Below are positions 10,246 to 45,165 of a stretch of DNA of 64,000 bases, piece by piece (positions within the stretch are counted from its first letter, which is position 1; every line of letters starts with the position of its first letter). The DNA comes from a virus. The position numbers and the translations under genes are program-made. The DNA is taken from positions 14,352 to 78,351 of the IMG/VR virus record IMGVR_UViG_3300045988_131144; one strand, 5' to 3'. The notes beneath the pieces are model-generated. The model was given only the letters and a program-made list of their open reading frames with translations, had not been told where the DNA came from and ran no database searches.

Positions 10246-10806
10246 ATGGCTTTTACTGAGAAAACCGCATTCCTTCCGAGAATGTGGAATAACCGCAACG
10301 ACGACCTGCAGAACATCGCGGGTAAGTTCGGCAGCCTCTCCGGCACGACCTTCACCCCCGCTGACTGCTCCGCAGGCTTCATCTGCAATAAGGGCGCACA
10401 CATGGCGACCGGCGGCTACCAGATGACCGCAGCCGCAGACGGCACTAAGGACGTTTACTTCTGCAATCCCGGTGACGTACAGCGCGGCACGATCGGCAAC
10501 GGTCTTTACGCAGAGGGGATCAACACTCTCGGCCTTGGCATCCCGTCCGGTGTACTGGACACCTTCTCCAAGGCGATCCCCGGGGAGACCTACGCTTTCG
10601 GCGAAGGCAACTTCTCCACCGCCGTAGACGCTACGACCAACATCTACGCCACCATCGTAAACGGACTGCTCGTCGGCACCAATGCCGCCCCCGCAGCCGG
10701 TTCTGGCATCTACTTTGAGCTCGATACGGGGCTCGGCATCGACGCCTGGACTGAGTCCAACTATAACGCGGGCAGCAGATTCAACATGCTGTGCCGCAAA
10801 GCATAA
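10246..10806 (+). CDS. hypothetical head protein (possible decoration protein)
   Basis: 186-aa Gly/Ala/Thr-rich ORF immediately upstream of the capsid-sized ORF. Confidence 0.4.
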   Translation: MAFTEKTAFLPRMWNNRNDDLQNIAGKFGSLSGTTFTPADCSAGFICNKGAHMATGGYQMTAAADGTKDVYFCNPGDVQRGTIGNGLYAEGINTLGLGIPSGVLDTFSKAIPGETYAFGEGNFSTAVDATTNIYATIVNGLLVGTNAAPAAGSGIYFELDTGLGIDAWTESNYNAGSRFNMLCRKA

Positions 10807-10826
10807 GGAAGGGAGGACGCACAACA

Positions 10827-12062
10827 ATGAATGAACTGCTGAAGTTTAACTCTGCCCTCGGCAACCTGACCAGCAAGCCGCTGTCGGGCGACGAGTACGC
10901 AGACCTTGTTACCCGCGGTAGGATTCTCGCTCTCGAGAAGGCTGGACGAGAGAAGAACAGAGCGCTCTCCGCCGCTGGTAAGCCCACGGAGGACTTTGCG
11001 TTTGCCTGCAACAGCGCAAAGGCTTTCGAGGAGCAGTGCCGCGAGTGGACTGATGACGTACTGTATTTTGCCGCTTCCAAGGCAAATTCCGTTGTCGGCA
11101 AGTCTACTGACCGCAATGATCGCAGCACTTTTGCCAATATGTCTCTCGCCACCGACCCCATCTTCCTCAAGGTCATGGCAACCATCATCGGGGCTACCTA
11201 CTACCCCGTAACTCCTGCCCTCATTTCCCCGCTGGTGGGTGAAATGGTTTCCGTGGAGACCACTCCCAAGGGCAAGACCAAGACCATCAACGTGACTTCC
11301 AACGCTGTGTTCCAGTACAGAGACACCTCTTGGACTGCTTTGCGCAGCGTGCCGCAGGATCAGCTCTACGGCAACACTATCACGCTCAACCCCAAGCCTT
11401 TTGCCACTCGCGGCGTTATCAACTTCTACCAGATGATTGGCAACGAGGGCAACCTCGTCGATACCGTCGCCGCAATGGCTGGCGGCTATGCGGCCTACAT
11501 CATGCAGAAGTTCACTACCGCCTTCACTGAGGTTGCGGGCAACACCAAGTATGTCCCCTCCGCTCTGAAAGCCACCAGCTACACGAGCAACAACTGGGCG
11601 ACCGTCTGCCAGAACGTTGCAAAGGCTAACCGTGTTCGCCGCGATCAGCTCATCGGCTACGGTGATTTCATGGCGCTGCGCAATGTCATCCCCGATACCA
11701 CCGGGCTTGCCAGCGCGATCATGTACCAGCTCGGCGATCAGTACTTCCGCAACGGCTACATAACCTCCAAGGATGGCGTGCTTCTCTACGAGATTCAGCC
11801 CACCTCCACGCCGGAGTCCATCAACACTACCCTGACCAGCATCTTCCCGACCGACATGATCATCATCGCTGCCCGCGCAAACGAGCGCTATGCACCTATG
11901 GTCATGTGCTTCGAGGAGGGCGCTGACACTCAGATCACCCTCACTCCGGGCGAGGACACCATCGCAACCGGCAGAATCGAGCTTCTGCAGGTCGACAGCG
12001 TCGATATCGCCCCCGTCCTGGCAAGCCGTATAGGCATCATCTCTGGCGTCACCAGCGCCTGA
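10827..12062 (+). CDS. putative major capsid protein
   Basis: 411 aa; ATG at 10827 behind a GGAAGGGAGGA RBS; size and position after the scaffold-like gene. Confidence 0.5.
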   Translation: MNELLKFNSALGNLTSKPLSGDEYADLVTRGRILALEKAGREKNRALSAAGKPTEDFAFACNSAKAFEEQCREWTDDVLYFAASKANSVVGKSTDRNDRSTFANMSLATDPIFLKVMATIIGATYYPVTPALISPLVGEMVSVETTPKGKTKTINVTSNAVFQYRDTSWTALRSVPQDQLYGNTITLNPKPFATRGVINFYQMIGNEGNLVDTVAAMAGGYAAYIMQKFTTAFTEVAGNTKYVPSALKATSYTSNNWATVCQNVAKANRVRRDQLIGYGDFMALRNVIPDTTGLASAIMYQLGDQYFRNGYITSKDGVLLYEIQPTSTPESINTTLTSIFPTDMIIIAARANERYAPMVMCFEEGADTQITLTPGEDTIATGRIELLQVDSVDIAPVLASRIGIISGVTSA

Positions 12063-12129
12063 TAATCCGCAAGCAGAGGAGGGACAACCTCCCTCCTCTG
12101 TCATCTGCCATGAAAGGAGAAATTGAGAG

Positions 12130-12777
12130 ATGGCAATGAGCGAAGAGCAGAAAAGAAAAATGGCCGAGGGCAGGAAGAAGAAAGCGGCTGAAAAGGCTGC
12201 TGAAGCTGCCAAGCCGAAGGAAGCGGAGAAGCCCGTAGAGCCTGTTGTACAGGAGGTATATGTCACTCCCAACGAGAAGATGGTGCAGTGCATCTACATT
12301 GACAGCGTTATCCCGAACAACGAGATCATCATCGGCAATGGTCGAAAGATAAGTGGCAGCGGACGAGTGTTCTCTGTTCCTCTAAGCGAGTTTGAGAGCA
12401 CGTTCATCACACCGCTGATAGCAAAACTCATCAAAACCCGAAGAATCATAGTGCTGGACGGCCTGACCGACGAGCAGAGAAGCCTTTATGACTGCGAGTA
12501 CGCCGAAAATGAAGTCATCCGCCGCGAGGGTGTTTTTGATTTCTTCTTCAAGAAAGAGATCCCCGAAGCCGCAGAGATATTCGGCAGCCTGTGCGCGGAG
12601 CATCAGGAGCTTGTAGCGGCGCGCTTCATGGATGCCTATCTGAACGATGGCAGCCCCCTCAAGCGGTATGTAAGCCGTGCCAGAGTCGTAGCGCTCAACA
12701 ATATATCTAAGGAAAAACACAACGGCGAGGGCATTTTCAAGCCCATGCTCGAAGCGCTGAATGCAGAAGATGTCTAA
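12130..12777 (+). CDS. hypothetical protein with Lys/Ala/Glu-rich N-terminus
   Basis: 215-aa ORF, AAAGGAG RBS. Confidence 0.5.
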   Translation: MAMSEEQKRKMAEGRKKKAAEKAAEAAKPKEAEKPVEPVVQEVYVTPNEKMVQCIYIDSVIPNNEIIIGNGRKISGSGRVFSVPLSEFESTFITPLIAKLIKTRRIIVLDGLTDEQRSLYDCEYAENEVIRREGVFDFFFKKEIPEAAEIFGSLCAEHQELVAARFMDAYLNDGSPLKRYVSRARVVALNNISKEKHNGEGIFKPMLEALNAEDV

Positions 12778-18130: not shown

Positions 18131-19255
18131 ATGTATTCTTTCAACCCTCAGTATGAGTTTTCCAAGGGAATCGTGTACTTTGAGGCGTTCGATGTCGCTA
18201 CCGACGATCTTGTCGGCTTCTCCAAGTACGTAACCGACTTTTCTCCCGCGGGCAGCATGAATGACGGCGCAGTTGAAGGCGGCCCCGGCAACATGCTTAT
18301 CATCAACATTCCCGACACCTCCCGTCTGACCTTCACGGCCAAGACCGCCGATTCCGCGCTGAACAACATGGCGCTGACTATCGGCCAGAGCCTGACCGGC
18401 AACGGCGTCGTTGAGACCTCGAGGCCCGTTGTAGCAAGCGGTGCGGCGCTGACCATAACCGGTGCTGTGGCTCCCCTTGGCGGTCAGAACGGAGCTGTGG
18501 CCTACATTCTCGGCTCTACCGGCAATGACAAGGACACGGTGGCAGCAAACAGCGGCAAGGCTTACAAGGTTGGCAGCGACGGTACCATTCAGGGATTCAC
18601 CGCTGTTTCCGGCAACACCTACTGCGTGAAGTATTTCGTGCAGAACAGCTCCGCCCTGCAGCTCGCAGTTCCTGCGCTGTTCCAGCCGAAAGTCGTCCGC
18701 GTTCACTTTGCGGTCAACATTTACGCCAAGAACGGCGGCGGCGATGCGAAGAACTCTTCCCTCTTCAAGATTCGCCACTACTACATCCCCTACTACTTCT
18801 TCACCGGCGCACTGTCCGACACCATCAACCAGACCACTCCTGGTTCTGTTGACCTGTCCGGCAACTGCCTGACCGCTGATGAAGTCGGCACCGATGTCTG
18901 CGCAAGCAACGCCATGCCAAACTACTGCTACATCGTTGACGAGTTCGTCTCCGGAACTTCCACCGGTTCCGTCGAGGGCATCTACTTCGTCGGCGCTGGC
19001 GCAGGTGTCTCTGTGGCAAACGGCGAGACCACCGAGCTTGTCGCCAAGTACGACGTTGCCGGTACGCTCACCAACATCTCTGACATGAGCGAGGTCACCT
19101 TCTCTACCGCAGCAGAGGCAACTGCGAAGTTCAACGACCCGCACTCTCCTGTGCTGACCGGCGTAGTTGCTGGCACTACCACGGCCACTGTCACCGTGAC
19201 CAACAGCATTTCCAAGGTGACTTACACCGACACCATCCCCGTAACCGTCACCTAA
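18131..19255 (+). CDS. putative major tail protein with C-terminal Ig-like domain
   Basis: 374 aa; C-terminal TGVVAGTTTATVTVTNSISKVTYTDTIPVTV is Ig-like; lies upstream of the tape measure. Confidence 0.5.
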   Translation: MYSFNPQYEFSKGIVYFEAFDVATDDLVGFSKYVTDFSPAGSMNDGAVEGGPGNMLIINIPDTSRLTFTAKTADSALNNMALTIGQSLTGNGVVETSRPVVASGAALTITGAVAPLGGQNGAVAYILGSTGNDKDTVAANSGKAYKVGSDGTIQGFTAVSGNTYCVKYFVQNSSALQLAVPALFQPKVVRVHFAVNIYAKNGGGDAKNSSLFKIRHYYIPYYFFTGALSDTINQTTPGSVDLSGNCLTADEVGTDVCASNAMPNYCYIVDEFVSGTSTGSVEGIYFVGAGAGVSVANGETTELVAKYDVAGTLTNISDMSEVTFSTAAEATAKFNDPHSPVLTGVVAGTTTATVTVTNSISKVTYTDTIPVTVT

Positions 19256-19264
19256 ACCAAAACA

Positions 19265-19290
19265 AAGCCCCCGGCGCAAGTCGGGGGCTT
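19265..19290 (-). terminator. hairpin whose U-tract lies on the minus strand
   Basis: AAGCCCCCG/CGGGGGCTT stem. Read on the minus strand it is followed by TTTGTTTTGG; read on the plus strand there is no T-run. Confidence 0.45.
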
Positions 19291-19350
19291 ATCCAAGACA
19301 GATGAATGATTCTTTCAACAAGGGCTTATTCCTGTGTTTTGGAGGGCAAT

Positions 19351-19779
19351 ATGAGCGTCTTACAAGATTATTTGCAGATTCGCGGATTGATAGATTCGGC
19401 CATTGAAAATGCACTAAGAGACAGCGTTGCTGATGGGCTAAAAGAAGCAATACAGAAAAAGGCAAAAGAAAATGTCTACAGCTACCCCGCGTCTCCCTCC
19501 GCAATGTACAAGCGGCGCGAAGAAAATGGAGGCCTCATTGATGACACGACCATGCTGACCACCGTCGATGGATTGACACTGACACTGGAAAACACAGCAG
19601 AGCCGCAGAACGCCGACGGCATTGATCTCACCCCAATCGTCGAGGAGGGCGATCCTGCTTGGCATCAGCCCTTTGCTCGTCCCTTTATGGATGAAGCGCG
19701 AGACGAATACGTGGACGATGGAAAAGCCGACAGCGACATTGCAAAAGAACTAAAAGCTATGGGATTTACGGTTTCTTAG
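19351..19779 (+). CDS. hypothetical tail-module protein
   Basis: ATG at 19351 behind a GGAGGG RBS; acidic 142-aa product; ORF is open from 19306. Confidence 0.5.
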   Translation: MSVLQDYLQIRGLIDSAIENALRDSVADGLKEAIQKKAKENVYSYPASPSAMYKRREENGGLIDDTTMLTTVDGLTLTLENTAEPQNADGIDLTPIVEEGDPAWHQPFARPFMDEARDEYVDDGKADSDIAKELKAMGFTVS

Positions 19780-19933
19780 GCGGATTTGCAGGCTTTGGAG
19801 AGGATTTTTTCTTGGCTTTTGAGGACTTATCAGTTCGCAGCATGGCAGCAAGCGCCCACTGCTGGCCGAGAGACATACCTCCTTGACCTTGTGCGAAGGC
19901 TTGAGCAGCCATCTGGGATTCATCCCAATTCAT
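19766..19933 (-). CDS. antisense-oriented small protein (55 aa) with Lys/Pro-rich tail
   Basis: Hand-translated MNWDESQMAAQAFAQGQGGMSLGQQWALAAMLRTDKSSKAKKKSSPKPANPPKKP; GGGAG RBS 9 nt upstream; own promoter. Confidence 0.4.
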   Translation of the reverse strand: MNWDESQMAAQAFAQGQGGMSLGQQWALAAMLRTDKSSKAKKKSSPKPANPPKKP

Positions 19934-19946
19934 GATATCAACTCCC

Positions 19947-19975
19947 TTCTATATAGATTATACACTATGCGCCGT
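19947..19975 (-). promoter_or_regulatory. sigma-A-type promoter TTGCAA-N17-TATAAT on the minus strand
   Basis: Minus strand reads TTGCAA CATAACGGCGCATAGTG TATAAT; -10 at 19947-19952, -35 at 19970-19975. Confidence 0.55.
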
Positions 19976-20002
19976 TATGTTGCAAGCGGAGGTTAACACT
20001 GA

Positions 20003-23000
20003 ATGAGCACAATAGTACAGATACAAGTAAATGTAAATGACGCAAAAGCGATAGCCTCGCTTACCAACATAGAGAACATCGGCAAAAGACTGAGCAGCAC
20101 ACCGATAGAGATAAAGGTCAACGCCGGGGCTGTTGACAAAGTCTCAAAGTCGGTTATCCAACTGGCAAAAGAGCAGACCAAACAGGCTACTGCAAGCGCA
20201 AAGCAGGCAGCGGCAGAAGCTAAAGTTCAGGTCGCGCAGGAAAAAACGAAGCAAACTTCTAACAGACTTGCCGCACAGCAAGAGAAAACCGCGCAGTCGG
20301 CCAACAGATTGGCCACTGGGCAGACCAAAGCCGCATCCGCAACGCAAAAAGCGGGCACCGAGGCGCAGAAAACTTCGGCGCTGACCGACCTGCTGGGAGA
20401 CAGCCTTGGTCGTATCGTTGCCAAACAGGCCGCATGGCAACTCATAGGCAACGGAATAGCCGGAGTAAAGAACGCCTTCGTTGATGCCCTCGACACAATG
20501 AAAGAGGTCGACAGTGAGCTTGCGACCGTGCGCAAGGTCACCGGCATGACCAAGGACGAGATGGATGCTCTTGGCGAATCGGCGTACTCCACCGCATCTA
20601 AGTACGGCGTTGCAGCAAACGAGTACCTCCAGAACGTTTCTACTTTCGCCCGTGCAGGTTACAAAGAAGCCGCACAGGGTCTTGGCGAGTTGGCCATAAA
20701 GACGCAGCTCGTCGGCGACACGGATCAGGAGACAGCATCGCAGTTTCTCCTTTCGGCTGATGCAGCGTGGAAATATCACGGCAATGTTGAAAAGCTTTCC
20801 CTCGCGCTGGATGAAGCCAATACCATAGACAACAACTATGCAACATCCATCCAGAAAATAGCTGAAGGCTTGCCCATTGTTGCAAATGTGGCCTCAATGG
20901 CTGGAATGTCCATGGAAGAAACCATGGCCATGCTCGGCACGATCACCGCCACTACGCAGGAGAGCGGTACAAAGGCGGCAACTGCGGCCAGAGCGCTTAT
21001 TCTCAATATTCTGGGCGATACTACTACCGAAATTTCGGATGGCGTGACAGCAACCGAGGAATCCGTACAGTCTCTTAGCGGCATACTCCAGAAGTACGCC
21101 CCCGATGTTGTCGCGGCGGCAGAGGCCACAGGGAAGCTTATAAACCCGATGGAAGCCATCGAAGCACTGTCAAAGGCGGCCAAGGATGGACTTATCTCCG
21201 AAGCAGATTTGATGCAGATGGTCTCTGCCCTCGGCGGAAAACTCCGCACGAACCAGCTCCTTGCGATCCTTGAAAACTTTGATATGTACAAAAGCATGTT
21301 GGCTGATATGGGCGTCGCTGCGGGCAGCGCCGATCAGGAAGTCAGCGTCATGCTCGATACTTGGGACGCGAAGGCAAATATTCTCAATAACACATGGACT
21401 GAATTTATTGCCCACATGGCCGATACCTCAGCCATCAAGGGCGGCCTCGACGTTATTACCGGGCTTGTTAAAGTTCTTGACAGCGACTTTGGGCACTTGG
21501 TAATAACTGCAACGGCGGCGACAACAGCAGTAGCGCTGCTGGGCAAAGCTTTTTCGGCCATAAACGGTTCAGCGCTCATCTCCACATTGAAAGGTATGAC
21601 GAAGAGCGCTGCGGACTTCAAGGCGGGGTGGTCGTTACTTACAGAGGGGTTACGAGCAAACCCATTCACTGTTGTGACGGCGGCTATTACAACGCTGATA
21701 GTAGGGATAAACTTAGCCGTTGATGCCACAGAACGTGCCTATGACAAGATTATAGACCGTGGGAAGGAAGCAAAAAGCGAAGCTGAGAATATTTCCGGAC
21801 TTTACTCTGAATACACAGCGGCGGCAAGTGCCGTAGATGGCACTGCAGAAGCTGACAAGCGCCTGGAACAAGCATCCAAAGACCTCGCCAAAGCCCTTGG
21901 AGCGGAACAGGGAGAAGTAGACGGCCTTGCCAACAGTTACGAAAAACTAACTCAGGATAAGCTAGAAGCCCTTTCGGAAGACGCAGCCGCGGCCGTAATG
22001 GCTGCGGAATATAAGCTTACGGATCCAGCACTTAATAAGGGTGGCATATTCGGTGAAATGCCCTCGGGGCTGCTGATGGCGTTGGGAAAAGAGACCGGCG
22101 AGATTGTGACGACGGCGGAACAGTATTCCGCGGCCTATGAAAAGCTTCGCTCTATACGGTCTCAAATGCTGAAAGATGACGAGAAGACCACCAAAATTAA
22201 TGGCAAAACTTTCCGGTATGACCAAATTGAAAAAGCAATCGAAAGCCTTAAGCCACGGGTAGAAGCTTACAATGACGCCTTAGCCGATCAGCAGGATATA
22301 TTAGACATCATTGAAGGAAAGAGCACCGATACCTCCGATTCTGTTGGGGATTCGTTTGAGGAAGTAAAGAGCTCGGTCGACGCAGCGACAGAAGCTTTAC
22401 AGAGATACAACGCCGAACTTGACGGGCTGGCTGACAAAGAAGCCAACGCAAATGCGATGCAGACAGCCTTCAACAACGCCATGAAGGACTTTCAGGCAGG
22501 CAAAGTCAGCTCGGCATACGTCAAGTCTTTCTACGACCAGTTTATCCCCGACGATATAAAAGAGCAGTTTGGGTATAGCGTCGCCGATGCCATGGAATGG
22601 GCGATGAGCGACAGCAACCTCGGCAAAATATTCAACAGCGGCGATATGTTTGGTGCATTTTATGATGTCATCAATGAAGCCGCGCAGGGTGGCTCACTCG
22701 ACGGAATCGTCTCGTTCGATGACAGCGGGGCGATCACAGCGATCTCCTCCTATAAGGAACTCGCAGAACAACTCGGAATAACCGAGGGGATGGCGCAGGC
22801 TCTCGCTCAGGGACTCAGTGTCTACATGGACGGTGTCTTCTACACAGGAGAGGAAGCCTCCAATATCGTATCACAGTTGGGTGACAAACTCGGTGAGGGT
22901 TCGCATTCTCTCTCAGACTATGCGTCTGCACTCTCTCAAATCACGGGACAGACGACCGTCGAGGGACTTCTCAGCGTATTTGAGGGGCTGGAACGAGCAG

Positions 23001-24652
23001 GAGCTGTCAATTGGGCAGATAAACTCGGTGTAGGTTCCGCTGAGGAAGCCCGTAGTCAAATAATCTCGACAATCGAGGCGCTTCTCGGAGAGACAGACGA
23101 CGCCAAAGCCAAAGCTAAGGATCCTGTTACGTTTGATGTTGACGCGGAGATTGATGAGGCAAACGCAAAGCTTGCTCAATTAGACGAGAAGAAAAAAACC
23201 GCCTCCGGTTCGGTGGATGTGCCGGTAACCGTCCCTGGCGCGGCAGAGGCCGAGCAACAGCTTGGCGATGTTAAGCAAGCGAAGGATGACGCAAGCGGAG
23301 ACGTGGAGTCTGGCGTGGATGCGTCGGGAGCAGCAGAAGCGGCGAGCGAACTGCGTGACGTTGGCGATGCCGCAAACGAAATCCCCGATTCCAAGCAGAT
23401 ACACGTTTCCGTTAGAGACAACGCAAGCGGCGTACTCAATGTAATCTATTCACGCCTTGCCTCGATTCGGAGCAAAACCGTCACGATCACCACAATAGAG
23501 AAAAAATACAAGCAAACAGCAAGCGGTGCCCTCATCCCAACTAATGCGGGCGGCACTCAAAATTCTCCCGGTGGTCGCGCGGTGGTCAACGACGGTGCGC
23601 CAGTTAATGGCAGTTCGGCAGAACTTATCGTGGACAACGGCGATGCCTATATTGCCAATGGCGGCAAAATGGCCATTGTCGACCTGTCCCCCGGTGCCAA
23701 AGTCTACACCGCAAAGCAAACCCAAGATATGCTTACCGGCGAGAAAGAAGAAATTCCGATGCACGCAGGCGGCACAGGGCTTGTAAGACCCGGCGGCAAT
23801 GGTGGTGTCTACGGCGGCGACCACAGCGGCGGAACTGGCGTCGGCGGCAGCACAGCCAGCAACACCGAAGAAGATGATCCGCTAAAAAAAGAAGTCAGTG
23901 AAAAGCTCGACAACATAGACAAGCAGATTGAGCTTGCCCGGAACCGGAATGACCGAGCCAAAGAACAGGCTTTGCAGGAGCAGGCCGCAAAGATGGTTCG
24001 AGATTTCGTGCAACAGTACCTCAACAAGGGATACAGCAACACATCAAACGAAGTTCTTGATCTTCTGAACCGCGGTTACGGCTACTCTGATGACCTTATG
24101 GGCGAGTTGGTCGACTCATTGGAGGCTCTTACCGATTCGACCAACGCAGCCAATAAGCTTGCAGAGAAGCAACAGGCGGTTGAAAAGGCACGGCAGGAGC
24201 TTGAAAACACCAAGAAACAGCGCACGGTCAGAATCTACAATCCAGTCACCGGACAGTGGGAATGGGTGGCAAAAGCCGATGACATCCTCAAGGCTCAAGA
24301 GAATCTGGCAGAGGCAGAGAAAGATTATCAGGATGCCAAAATCGAGCAGGAACTTGATGCGATCAAGAACGGCAATATCGGTGATATTGGTGACCTGACC
24401 ATGAGTCCGGCGTTGCGAGAGTTGATATCCAATGCAAGCGACGAAGAGCAGAAGCGCATTGCCGATATTCTGCACGCCATTTCAGGCGGTGCAAAGAACA
24501 CCACCGATACCACCGGCGAGAGCATCTTCCGCAGCACCGACAGTCACGACGTATACTACCAGTTCGGTGATTTGAAGCTCTCTGAAGCCGAGGCGAAAAA
24601 CATGACCGTCAAGGAGCTTGCCGAAAAGCTCAAGACTTTGAAGCTCACTTAA
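20003..24652 (+). CDS. tail tape measure protein
   Basis: 1549 aa, the largest ORF; Ala/Gln/Lys-rich coiled coils and central hydrophobic segments; canonical position. Confidence 0.85.
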   Translation: MSTIVQIQVNVNDAKAIASLTNIENIGKRLSSTPIEIKVNAGAVDKVSKSVIQLAKEQTKQATASAKQAAAEAKVQVAQEKTKQTSNRLAAQQEKTAQSANRLATGQTKAASATQKAGTEAQKTSALTDLLGDSLGRIVAKQAAWQLIGNGIAGVKNAFVDALDTMKEVDSELATVRKVTGMTKDEMDALGESAYSTASKYGVAANEYLQNVSTFARAGYKEAAQGLGELAIKTQLVGDTDQETASQFLLSADAAWKYHGNVEKLSLALDEANTIDNNYATSIQKIAEGLPIVANVASMAGMSMEETMAMLGTITATTQESGTKAATAARALILNILGDTTTEISDGVTATEESVQSLSGILQKYAPDVVAAAEATGKLINPMEAIEALSKAAKDGLISEADLMQMVSALGGKLRTNQLLAILENFDMYKSMLADMGVAAGSADQEVSVMLDTWDAKANILNNTWTEFIAHMADTSAIKGGLDVITGLVKVLDSDFGHLVITATAATTAVALLGKAFSAINGSALISTLKGMTKSAADFKAGWSLLTEGLRANPFTVVTAAITTLIVGINLAVDATERAYDKIIDRGKEAKSEAENISGLYSEYTAAASAVDGTAEADKRLEQASKDLAKALGAEQGEVDGLANSYEKLTQDKLEALSEDAAAAVMAAEYKLTDPALNKGGIFGEMPSGLLMALGKETGEIVTTAEQYSAAYEKLRSIRSQMLKDDEKTTKINGKTFRYDQIEKAIESLKPRVEAYNDALADQQDILDIIEGKSTDTSDSVGDSFEEVKSSVDAATEALQRYNAELDGLADKEANANAMQTAFNNAMKDFQAGKVSSAYVKSFYDQFIPDDIKEQFGYSVADAMEWAMSDSNLGKIFNSGDMFGAFYDVINEAAQGGSLDGIVSFDDSGAITAISSYKELAEQLGITEGMAQALAQGLSVYMDGVFYTGEEASNIVSQLGDKLGEGSHSLSDYASALSQITGQTTVEGLLSVFEGLERAGAVNWADKLGVGSAEEARSQIISTIEALLGETDDAKAKAKDPVTFDVDAEIDEANAKLAQLDEKKKTASGSVDVPVTVPGAAEAEQQLGDVKQAKDDASGDVESGVDASGAAEAASELRDVGDAANEIPDSKQIHVSVRDNASGVLNVIYSRLASIRSKTVTITTIEKKYKQTASGALIPTNAGGTQNSPGGRAVVNDGAPVNGSSAELIVDNGDAYIANGGKMAIVDLSPGAKVYTAKQTQDMLTGEKEEIPMHAGGTGLVRPGGNGGVYGGDHSGGTGVGGSTASNTEEDDPLKKEVSEKLDNIDKQIELARNRNDRAKEQALQEQAAKMVRDFVQQYLNKGYSNTSNEVLDLLNRGYGYSDDLMGELVDSLEALTDSTNAANKLAEKQQAVEKARQELENTKKQRTVRIYNPVTGQWEWVAKADDILKAQENLAEAEKDYQDAKIEQELDAIKNGNIGDIGDLTMSPALRELISNASDEEQKRIADILHAISGGAKNTTDTTGESIFRSTDSHDVYYQFGDLKLSEAEAKNMTVKELAEKLKTLKLT

Positions 24653-31092: not shown

Positions 31093-32049
31093 TCAAACGG
31101 CTACCGTAGGGCTTGTGACGGCGTTTTCAAGCACATTGCCGATACTGGCTGCGAGTTTGGCGGGATGGAGACGCTGGGCGTATATCGCCGTTACCTTGGT
31201 GTCAGCGTGGCCGAGTACGCCGCTTATATCGTCGACCGCAACACCAGCTTCAAGCGCGGCGGATGCAAAGCCGTGACGCAGAGCATGAGAGCGGCAGGCG
31301 CTTTCTTCACCTATCACGGACTTGGTATACCCATTTATTAGTTCGGAGAGCTGGGTACGCTCCAAGGGCTTCCACTCCCCTGTTTTGCGGCTGACGCAAC
31401 CAAACAGCGGCGCATTGTCATCGGCAGAGTCCGGACGTATACCGGAGGCGAGGTAGTTTTTCACAGCAGTCTGAGCCGCGGCAGAGAACGGAACCATGCG
31501 GGGCTTATCGCCCTTGGTGACGCGGAGCATTATGCAGCCATTCGCCCAATCGAGGTCAGCCGGGGTAAGAGAACGAAGCTCGGAGTTGCGCGCGCCAGAG
31601 AGAAGCATAAGCGTGACCTCCGCCTGTTCCCTTGCCCATGTGGCCATCTTCTTGCCGTATATGGGGCGTTCGGCGGAAATAAGGGAATGTATCTGCTCAA
31701 CGCTCAGAACGTGCTCATACGGCTTCTTCTTGGCTCTGGTGACCTTTCCCTTGGGCGGCATGGCATCGTCGAACACAAACGCCTCGGTATAGCCGTATCT
31801 GGCCGCGAACTCGGAGATCTGACGGAGCTGCCCCATGTAGAGACTTGCTGTGGTGATAGCGTCGTGGGCGATGTCCGAACGGAACTTCATTACCGCGGTG
31901 GCGGTCACGTCCGCAAAACCGTGGCGCGCCATGCTCTCGCGGAAGAGTCGGAACGTCCGGGAATAACCGGTGACTGTCTGCGCCGACAACTCGTTATTGC
32001 GCATATTCTCTATATATGCCGCACATGCGGCGTCGTATTTCTCAAACAT
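31093..32049 (-). CDS. int: tyrosine recombinase / phage integrase
   Basis: GARNSELRSL (Arg), HALRHGFAS (H-x-x-R), LGHADTKVTAIYAQ (His, Tyr) catalytic signature. Confidence 0.85.
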   Translation of the reverse strand: MFEKYDAACAAYIENMRNNELSAQTVTGYSRTFRLFRESMARHGFADVTATAVMKFRSDIAHDAITTASLYMGQLRQISEFAARYGYTEAFVFDDAMPPKGKVTRAKKKPYEHVLSVEQIHSLISAERPIYGKKMATWAREQAEVTLMLLSGARNSELRSLTPADLDWANGCIMLRVTKGDKPRMVPFSAAAQTAVKNYLASGIRPDSADDNAPLFGCVSRKTGEWKPLERTQLSELINGYTKSVIGEESACRSHALRHGFASAALEAGVAVDDISGVLGHADTKVTAIYAQRLHPAKLAASIGNVLENAVTSPTVAV

Positions 32050-32265: not shown

Positions 32266-32294
32266 ATTATAATTTAAGGTTACCCAAATGTCAA
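32266..32294 (-). promoter_or_regulatory. consensus promoter TTGACA-N17-TATAAT for the RHH-int operon
   Basis: Minus strand reads TTGACA TTTGGGTAACCTTAAAT TATAAT; the -10 is flanked by direct repeats GGGTAACCT / GGGTGACCT. Confidence 0.6.
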
Positions 32295-44099: not shown

Positions 44100-44453
44100 T
44101 CAAATAAAATACATAGTCCCGTCCAGCTCGACGGCGACGGCCTCTTGCTTTAGCTCGTCTCGCATGCGGACGGCAAAATTAACAACATCGTCCAGGTGTT
44201 CATCAAGTGCAGACTGCGCAGCATAGGCGAACACGGCGTTGTTATCTTCGGCAATAAGCCCGTGCGCCTCGCTCATCCAATAGCCGCGGACGGGCGTTGA
44301 CGTTGCGCCACCGAAGCACTCAGACAGCAGCGCGGCGGCCTCGGTCACGTATGCGCTTGTATCTCCTGCTGTGCTCGCGTCAACGGTTCCGGGAACGTAA
44401 ACCGTTATTTTGTGGCTGAGGCTGAAAGAGTTTTTCAAGATATTATTATTCAT
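44100..44453 (-). CDS. hypothetical protein (first gene of the leftward early operon)
   Basis: 117-aa ORF immediately downstream of the promoter at 44497-44525. Confidence 0.5.
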   Translation of the reverse strand: MNNNILKNSFSLSHKITVYVPGTVDASTAGDTSAYVTEAAALLSECFGGATSTPVRGYWMSEAHGLIAEDNNAVFAYAAQSALDEHLDDVVNFAVRMRDELKQEAVAVELDGTMYFI

Positions 44454-44496: not shown

Positions 44497-44525
44497 ATTA
44501 TACAGTACGGTTAACAGTATTGCAA
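44497..44525 (-). promoter_or_regulatory. promoter TTGCAA-N17-TATAAT with embedded GTTAAC operator half-site
   Basis: Minus strand reads TTGCAA TACTGTTAACCGTACTG TATAAT. Confidence 0.6.
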
Positions 44526-44574
44526 TATGTTATCTTGCACAAGGTTAACCGTACTTTTTTGTGCGAATTGTATA

Positions 44575-44603
44575 TTGTTAACCGTGCGCACATTGGTTAT
44601 AAT
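44575..44603 (+). promoter_or_regulatory. promoter TTGTTA-N17-TATAAT overlapping a GTTAACCG site
   Basis: TTGTTA ACCGTGCGCACATTGGT TATAAT, 20 nt upstream of the TTG start at 44624. Confidence 0.55.
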
Positions 44604-44623
44604 AAATATGGGGAGGTGATATT

Positions 44624-44857
44624 TTGCCCGTACCAAAAGGCGATAAAAAAAGCGATGCCCGCCGAGCCTCGCAAAATAAATATGATCTCAAAAATTTAGC
44701 CGTGCTTGCCTGCAAAGTGCGAAAACCCGAGGCCGAAGCGTTCCGGGCACTTTGCGAGGTGCACGGACTGACAGTCAACGCGGCCTTGTCTGACTATGTG
44801 CACAACAGTTTAGACGGGTGCGCGCTGCTGGAAAGTTTGACAACCGCGGAAAAATAA
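44624..44857 (+). CDS. RHH-like small DNA-binding protein (candidate switch regulator)
   Basis: TTG start behind GGGGAGGTGA; LAVLACKVRKPEAEAFRALCEVHGLTVNAALSDYV fits strand-helix-helix. Confidence 0.45.
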   Translation: MPVPKGDKKSDARRASQNKYDLKNLAVLACKVRKPEAEAFRALCEVHGLTVNAALSDYVHNSLDGCALLESLTTAEK

Positions 44858-44871
44858 AAGGGGGTACAATA

Positions 44872-45024
44872 ATGCCAACTGAAAAGGAAATGAAAGAAGC
44901 CCGGAAAGCTATAGCGTATGATCTGATAAACATCATAGACGAGAAGCCCGAGCAAGAAACGTATACCGCCGAAGAAATAAAGAAAATAATTAAAATCTAT
45001 GTCAGCACGGCAAATCAGGACTAA
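44872..45024 (+). CDS. small hypothetical protein (50 aa)
   Basis: ATG at 44872 behind AAGGGGG. Confidence 0.4.
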   Translation: MPTEKEMKEARKAIAYDLINIIDEKPEQETYTAEEIKKIIKIYVSTANQD

Positions 45025-45054
45025 AACCACTTAAGGATCATACAGAAAAACAAG

Positions 45055-45090
45055 AGAGCAGACCGAAAAACAACGGCCTGCTCTTTTTGT
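45055..45090 (+). terminator. rho-independent terminator
   Basis: AGAGCAGACCG aaaaacaa CGGCCTGCTCT followed by TTTTTGT. Confidence 0.55.
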
Positions 45091-45136
45091 ATGCTTTGTA
45101 CGGTTTACCGTGCTTATTTTTGTGCATTATTGCGGC

Positions 45137-45165
45137 TTGCAACACTGTTAACCGTACTGTATAAT
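45137..45165 (+). promoter_or_regulatory. promoter TTGCAA-N17-TATAAT, inverted copy of 44497-44525
   Basis: TTGCAA CACTGTTAACCGTACTG TATAAT. Confidence 0.6.

Follow-up and report, generated by a model that had tools for sequence, protein, structure and literature searches.

What does the gap upstream of the tape-measure gene contain in an uncultured temperate phage, and which strand of it is used? The stretch of DNA analysed here (the window) comprises 64,000 nt of the IMG/VR virus record IMGVR_UViG_3300045988_131144, and the order of its tail module is tube gene, YomN-like gene, a gap with a cassette on the minus strand, and tape-measure gene. From its sequence the cassette is most probably a moron, a ~220-bp independent transcription unit that was inserted in reverse orientation between two tail genes, the YomN-like and the tape-measure gene, and that contains a small gene for a protein of 55 amino acids (aa). 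The features on which this reading depends are as follows.

19766-19933, minus strand: gene for the 55-aa protein, overlapping the convergent YomN-like gene by 14 nt
19942-19946, minus strand: Shine-Dalgarno sequence GGGAG, 8 nt 5' of the ATG at 19933
19957-19985, minus strand: predicted sigma-A/sigma-70-type promoter, with a -35 box TTGCAA (19985-19980), a 17-nt spacer and a -10 box TATAAT (19962-19957)
19351-19779, plus strand: YomN-like late gene (142 aa), in the slot of the tail assembly chaperone and convergent with the small gene
20003-24652, plus strand: tape measure protein gene (1549 aa), whose homologues carry PF10145 PhageMin_Tail

A conserved gene on the minus strand

The gap extends from the stop of the YomN-like gene to the ATG of the tape-measure gene at 20003 (19780-20002, 223 bp), and on the minus strand it reads CCGC-TTGCAA-CATAACGGCGCATAGTG-TATAAT-CTATATAGAA-GGGAG-TTGATATC-ATG, with a predicted transcription start at about 19950. 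The original prediction, made from the letters of the window, had described this gap, the GGGAG ribosome-binding site (RBS) and a 55-aa open reading frame (ORF) at 19933-19766 with a Lys/Pro-rich tail, and all of these can be read from the sequence. Its TTGCAA-N17-TATAAT promoter is also present on the minus strand, at 19985-19957; the coordinates first given for it, 19947-19975, are 10 nt too low. The promoter had further been said to overlap the RBS of the tape-measure gene, which is not the case: the Shine-Dalgarno sequence of that gene, GGAGG (19988-19992), abuts the -35 box with 2 nt between them.

Seventeen IMG/VR contigs carry the region in close relatives, whose neighbouring gene encodes a protein of 82-100% identity, and an IMG/VR profile search returned the same 17 loci. 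The possibility, raised with the prediction, that ORF and promoter might be missing from close relatives was checked, and both are intact in 17 of 17. Within 19780-19933, 16 of the 27 columns that vary among these relatives are third codon positions in the minus ORF, for which synonymous and nonsynonymous changes stand at 15:13, with no stops, compared with 1:25 to 10:14 in the five other frames. The ratio of nonsynonymous to synonymous substitution rates (dN/dS) over the first 36 codons is 0.07-0.18 at dS values of 0.2-1.6, whether phage or non-phage copies are compared with one another. Judged from these substitution patterns, the minus ORF is a genuine gene under strong purifying selection.

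Promoter and ribosome-binding site

In a consensus scan, the cassette promoter was the sole 10/12 match, and ranked first, between 12 and 28 kb of the window. Over the full 64 kb there are 12 matches of 10/12 or better, compared with 7.7 +/- 2.7 in Markov shuffles, so that the hexamers alone are not beyond chance; overall counts of promoter-like sites equal the shuffle expectation. What sets the cassette beyond chance is that promoter, RBS and ORF are conserved. The stretch from promoter to RBS (19935-19995) is invariant in the 17 close relatives except for one 2-bp insertion, whereas the adjacent late gene varies freely, and the RBS is kept as AAGGGAG or AAGGGG across all homologous cassettes. 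The promoter hexamers persist with three unrelated spacers, as TTGCAA-CATAACGGCGCATAGTG-TATAAT, TTGCAA-TGCATCGTAAATCCTGC-TATACT and TTGCAA-AGTGTCTCCCGTTCTGG-TATACT; at loci L026 and L027 they are the only promoter-like sites that the scan found, and at L048 and L052 the upstream DNA is non-homologous, yet a 10/12 promoter-like site occurs at the same place. At the level of sequence, the cassette thus has a promoter of its own.

The promoters at 44505-45157 offer a comparison. Six copies of the motif GTTAACCGTRC (1.5 expected) are located there, inside or beside three similar promoters, and one of these, TTGCAACA-CTGTTAACCGTAC-TGTATAAT, has both flanks in common with the cassette promoter. The cluster is probably the operator set of the lysis/lysogeny switch of the phage. 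No copy of this operator-like motif is present at the cassette promoter, so the cassette may escape the regulator that binds GTTAACCGTRC and be expressed in lysogens, where its promoter is probably active. As side observations, the three promoters of the cluster are divergent or tandem TTGxxx-N17-TATAAT arrangements, and the 117-aa ORF beside the cluster (44100-44453) has no Pfam match.

Insertion between adjacent tail genes

More distant phages that lack the cassette (L049, L050, L051, L055 and L056) have the same tail synteny of YomW, tube, YomN-like and tape-measure genes, and in them the stop of the YomN-like gene lies 17-20 nt from the ATG of the tape-measure gene, compared with 223 nt in the window and a longer distance in L048. 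The cassette is thus extra DNA inserted between genes that are adjacent in relatives, and because this extra DNA has a promoter of its own we read it as a moron. Cassettes occupy the same antisense slot at the following loci, where P numbers denote the small proteins and identities are to the window.

L024-L026: small protein P0013, 53% identical
L027-L029: small protein P0007
L030: small protein P0015, 45% identical
L048: neighbouring gene only 50% identical
L053: small protein P0014
L057 and L058: close relatives of the window

The most divergent homologue, P0019, is found at L052 (3900-5330), where the gene has its own promoter and adjoins the start of the tape-measure gene; a block with an integrase, SSB and a CI-like repressor follows it in place of the YomN-like gene. 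Either L052 is a phage that has undergone rearrangement, or an element has inserted at the tape-measure junction. A search of phage DNA in GenBank gave only a weak match, to the tape-measure gene, and single-protein IMG/VR searches with the homologues from cassette-less phages gave no matches. The 5-bp sequence GCGGA, present at both edges of the cassette, was considered as an insertion scar; it is not conserved in relatives and we do not rely on it.

Copies outside phage tail modules

The family also occurs in loci that have no YomN-like gene. In an uncultured member of the Clostridiales (UMGS887; URDG01000001.1, 5690-6450; L023), a cassette with the same CCGC-TTGCAA promoter lies beside a gene for tRNA-Thr(CGT), and its neighbours are polA, a rimI-like gene, tsaD, radC and the enolase gene eno. 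A scar of about 25 nt that corresponds to the antisense of a tape-measure start (…TACTATCGTGCTCAT…) points to its phage origin. The 76-aa variant encoded here belongs to a cluster of 17 members on contigs of up to 182 kb, and it can therefore be taken as stably resident in a bacterial lineage; the copy appears to be a domesticated moron. Four further loci (L019-L022) have the gene among unrelated neighbours, such as radical SAM and zinc-ribbon genes, and another copy (L018, treated below) adjoins cas genes. The hairpins found downstream of chromosomal cassettes are other ones than those of the phage tail module.

Taken at the level of their sequences, these copies indicate that members of the family have passed between phage and bacterial chromosome and been retained on either side. 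Since chromosomal copies occur without tail genes, the action of the protein does not depend on an antisense role. The suggestion in the original prediction that the cassette could be a moron is well supported by the insertion, the conserved promoter and RBS, the purifying selection and these stand-alone chromosomal copies.

The downstream hairpin and the predicted antisense transcript

Where a transcript from the cassette would end is a separate question, for which the region between the tube and YomN-like genes is relevant.

18131-19255, plus strand: tail tube (major tail) gene, 5' of both hairpins; homologues carry a weak PF27173 YomU_Tube label
19265-19290 (19255-19290 with its tail), minus strand: GC-rich hairpin HP1, with the minus-strand tail TGTTTTGGTT
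19304-19331, plus strand: weaker hairpin HP2, with CTGTGTTTTGG and then the RBS of the YomN-like gene after it; given for context, outside the cassette
19291-19765, minus strand: putative 3' untranslated part of the minus transcript, fully antisense to the YomN-like gene

HP1 folds at about -25 kcal/mol on both strands, and its minus-strand reading was the top terminator-like site in a scan of 16 kb. As had been noticed at the outset, its U-tract is on the minus and not on the plus strand: the minus tail is TGTTTTGGTT, whereas the plus tail, UAUCCAAGAC, has almost no U. From the stop of the ORF down to 19290 the minus strand of the window showed no terminator-like site, and the same holds for L026 and L027. 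HP1 is the probable terminator of an antisense transcript that, by geometry, would measure about 690 nt, about 475 nt of it antisense to the YomN-like gene.

The hairpin was compared in the window (19265-19346) and in L026, L027, L030, L048-L051, L053, L055, L056 and L058. The pair of hairpins lies between the tube and YomN-like genes in every lineage, with or without the cassette, and HP2 was scored as a late-strand terminator-like site in relatives. Because the hairpin occurs in phages that lack the cassette, HP1 predates the insertion, and the terminator that had been proposed as a part of the cassette does not belong to it. The 10-nt tail on the antisense side of HP1 has 6-8 T in the seven cassette-bearing lineages and 4-6 T in the five without a cassette; on the late strand the 10-nt tail is T-poor throughout, at 0-4 T. 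These counts hint faintly that a pre-existing hairpin was reused and slightly improved as an antisense terminator, although the two groups may represent just two clades. In no lineage does HP1 have a late-strand U-tract, and the hairpin may be an element for stabilising or processing messenger RNA that sets the ratio of tube to downstream expression.

Besides a moron, the original prediction had offered a cis-antisense brake on the late tail genes. With such a transcript, the antisense RNA itself might be the main product: by pairing with late transcripts of the YomN-like and tape-measure genes, or by collision with their transcription, it would hold down tail-gene expression or keep leaky late transcription silent in lysogens, the ORF being secondary. 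The ~475 nt of perfect antisense that would follow from the missing terminator speak for this, as do the overlap of the convergent ORFs, retained at 8-14 nt in diverged phages, and the richer T-tract of HP1 where a cassette is present; that contrast is open to the explanation by two clades, however, and the asymmetry of the hairpin precedes the cassette. The cassette resembles the cis-antisense RNAs of phage operons in that its promoter faces the late operon and its transcript is predicted to overlap a late gene over a long distance. It differs from them in that the transcript contains a conserved and selected ORF which survives in loci without the sense gene; an Rfam scan of 18-21 kb also found no RNA family. 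ORF and promoter are retained at L018, L019-L022 and L023, all of which lack a YomN-like target. Given the constraint on the protein and these copies without a sense gene, antisense RNA cannot be the main selected function, and we consider this explanation unlikely, although an effect on tail-gene expression is possible. We return to the moron as the preferred reading and turn to what its protein might do.

A small-protein family and its possible function

The 55-aa protein belongs to a previously unannotated family of small proteins with a conserved domain of 33 residues and swappable tails. A search of 5.8 billion clustered proteins gave 10 clusters, and an exhaustive profile search of 1.84 billion representatives gave only 12 clusters (at 50% identity). 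All members have the N-terminal block MNWxxSQMAAxAFAxGxGGMSLGQQWALAAMLR in common, with the conserved residues W3, G16, G18-19, S21, G23, W26, L28, A29 and R33. An AlphaFold model of low confidence (predicted local distance difference test, pLDDT, 64) places helices at residues 3-15 and 22-33, joined by the GxGG loop and followed by disorder. The tails vary: Lys/Pro-rich in the window, a hydrophobic, transmembrane-like anchor at the C-terminus of P0009 and P0015, amphipathic (...RKRAKKLAALGF...) in P0010, P0011 and P0014, and longer and acidic in P0013. Polybasic, transmembrane and amphipathic tails look like alternative devices for placing the N-terminal domain at the membrane, and in this way the tail variants hint weakly at a membrane location. 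For P0010 and P0014, NCBIfam gave a weak similarity to residues 42-107 of L-aspartate oxidase (E 0.002-0.003; ~16 bits compared with a cut-off of 528 bits), which is probably spurious.

The mechanism that we propose starts from a promoter of host type and an RBS, from which the 55-aa protein would probably be made in the lysogen under constitutive transcription; the transcript would continue antisense through the YomN-like gene and stop at the pre-existing hairpin past the tube gene. The exchangeable tails would place the conserved domain at the inner membrane face, where superinfecting phages might be excluded, to the benefit of host or prophage. Such a function of the superinfection-exclusion type, in which the prophage benefits and the tails position the domain at the membrane, is a tentative suggestion, and a doubtful one, made by analogy since the protein matched no family in any library.

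Gp15 of phage HK97, a superinfection-exclusion protein that acts at the inner membrane face and keeps the DNA of superinfecting phages from entering, provides the closest comparison. Its gene 15 is a moron located between the tail chaperone and tape-measure genes, and its bacterial homologues are alike in their N-termini and diverged in their C-termini (PMC3594210). The cassette occupies the same slot and likewise encodes a small protein from its own promoter within the late operon of a temperate phage, and for both proteins the bacterial homologues agree in the N-terminal part but not in the C-terminal one. The window protein differs in having no sequence relationship to gp15/YebO (Pfam-A scan, E <= 0.01) and in not being a single-pass inner-membrane protein; only P0009 and P0015 have a transmembrane-like end. 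A second comparison is Tab of phage JBD26, whose target is the tape-measure protein (PMC10884400). Both are small proteins of temperate phages whose genes lie within a structural operon and are presumably expressed from the prophage, but they are not homologous, Tab lies between terminase genes, and gene adjacency alone makes the link to the tape measure here. From morons in general the cassette differs in that it appears to bring no terminator of its own, the ancestral hairpin ~475 nt downstream being the predicted one, and in its G+C content, which is not distinct.

Several points weigh against the moron reading or against the function attached to it. The activity of the promoter, expression in the lysogen and the 3' end of the transcript are all deduced from the letters of the DNA, and HP1, on the comparison of lineages given above, is an ancestral element of the region between the tube and YomN-like genes and no part of the insertion. 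The cassette-bearing phages may form one clade, in which case the conserved position may reflect a single insertion event. The base composition of the cassette does not set it apart: its G+C fraction is 0.484, and those of the YomN-like gene, the tape-measure gene and the window are 0.494, 0.531 and 0.508. As regards exclusion, the 55-aa protein gave no credible family in Pfam-A (E <= 0.01), PHROGs, PADLOC, NCBIfam or the PDB sequences; it has no hydrophobic or transmembrane segment; and the P0013 tail variant (111 aa) looks soluble, which weakens the idea of membrane targeting. In the usage of Juhala et al. (2000) and Cumby et al. (2012), a distinct base composition is usual for a moron but not obligatory.

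The cassette changes no general concept, a moron being an ordinary feature of phages; it adds a comparatively documented moron from uncultured phages of gut Clostridia, and this moron shares its tail-operon slot with HK97 gene 15, the founding example. Small prophage proteins of such a type have repeatedly proved to be exclusion or defence factors, and the family is for this reason a reasonable candidate for functional testing.

A homologue beside cas genes

The copy at L018 (P0009; Logan contig from SRR28428379, 1-520) raises the question of whether the protein is linked to clustered regularly interspaced short palindromic repeats (CRISPR). Over 299 nt the contig is 79% identical to the phage cassette of L030, and P0009 lies ~150 nt from cas2 in a cas9-cas1-cas2 locus, between two copies of a 35-nt sequence, a degenerate one at 40-74 and another at 424-458 (GTTGTAGTTCCCTAATGGTTCTTGGTATGGTATAAT). 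We take this sequence to resemble a CRISPR repeat of the Neisseria type II-C kind with a built-in -10 box. Homology to phage begins directly after the first repeat copy, for which reason the gene seems to be driven by a promoter borne on the repeat, and the minus strand from 458 to about 360 has the look of a trans-activating CRISPR RNA (tracrRNA), with an anti-repeat, AAGGC and a hairpin. No CRISPR array was seen on the contig, which ends at position 1, and the repeat-like sequence was not found in viral contigs. Between the copies of L018 and L030 the constraint is relaxed (dN/dS 0.66).

Two explanations build on this locus. In the first, the cassette would have a dual function: the 33-residue domain would act as a novel module that counters defence or interacts with CRISPR, and the antisense 3' end would tune the chaperone and tape-measure genes by way of the co-opted hairpin. 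One copy would have been captured in a type II-C Cas9 locus, where it would sit between the tracrRNA-like region and the presumed array and where the repeat-borne -10 box appears to drive it. We regard this combination as very unlikely. The second, a role of the protein against host defence or in connection with CRISPR, such as that of an anti-CRISPR directed at a type II-C Cas9 of the host, would suit a small phage protein with a strong predicted promoter of its own, and the position of P0009 near cas2, flanked by repeat-like copies and next to the tracrRNA-like stretch, in a segment so similar to the L030 cassette, is in its favour. The locus is known from a single short-read contig, however, with no array on it and no viral counterpart of its repeat; no aca-type regulator is nearby, no helix-turn-helix gene stands beside the window cassette, and the protein resembles no known family. 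The other non-phage copies have unrelated neighbours and the selection between L018 and L030 is relaxed, so that we hold such a role to be very unlikely.

Coding on the late strand, and chance

If the late (plus) strand were coding in the gap, by TAG readthrough or a -1 frameshift, the minus ORF would be a mere shadow. In the window the reading frame of the 19351-19779 gene is open for 51 codons past its TAG (19777-19779), and the -1 frame has no stop between about 19694 and 19884, with third codon positions in common with the minus ORF. Both candidates fail in relatives. The readthrough frame is broken in 8 of the 17 close relatives and the -1 frame in L011, L024 and L026; in the gap of L024 and L026, stops crowd each of the three late-strand frames, whereas the minus ORF is intact and encodes 111 aa. 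There is no slippery heptamer of the form X XXY YYZ near the end of the 19351-19779 gene, and relatives without the cassette have no late-strand extension. With the late-strand readings excluded, it is the minus ORF that is the gene, and late-strand coding is scarcely conceivable. The comparison with the G/GT region of phage lambda follows the same lines: the slot between tube and tape measure is the same, and in the window alternative frames are open toward the 3' end of the chaperone-slot gene, but the slippery site is lacking, and an extension is neither conserved in its frames nor present at all where relatives lack the cassette.

That hexamers, ORF and hairpin have come together by chance and without function, as the near-random frequency of promoter-like hexamers in the window would allow, deserves practically no credence when promoter, RBS and ORF are conserved next to a gene that has diverged to 50% identity, dN/dS is ~0.1 and the protein forms a family of 12 clusters.

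The phage and other features of the window

The window is a temperate phage genome or prophage. Its minus strand carries an integrase gene (31093-32049), an anti-repressor and several methyltransferases, and the plus strand from 1 to 31 kb carries the terminase, portal, capsid, tail and endolysin genes; the phage is temperate, has an SPbeta-like tail and comes from gut Clostridia. The PF27376 (YomN) label on homologues of the 19351-19779 gene is precomputed, and a direct hmmscan of Pfam gave no match.

Two further observations concern other parts of the window. At 10761-12293, a 510-aa ORF that starts with ATG on the minus strand overlaps a 423-aa ORF that starts with GTG on the plus strand (10791-12062), neither of them with a Pfam match; the region has a G+C fraction of 0.57 and a negative GC skew, unlike the remaining late operon, and it could be a second reverse-oriented insert. 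A perfect 12/12 promoter, TTGACA-N17-TATAAT, lies on the minus strand at 32266-32294 and is directed toward the integrase gene.

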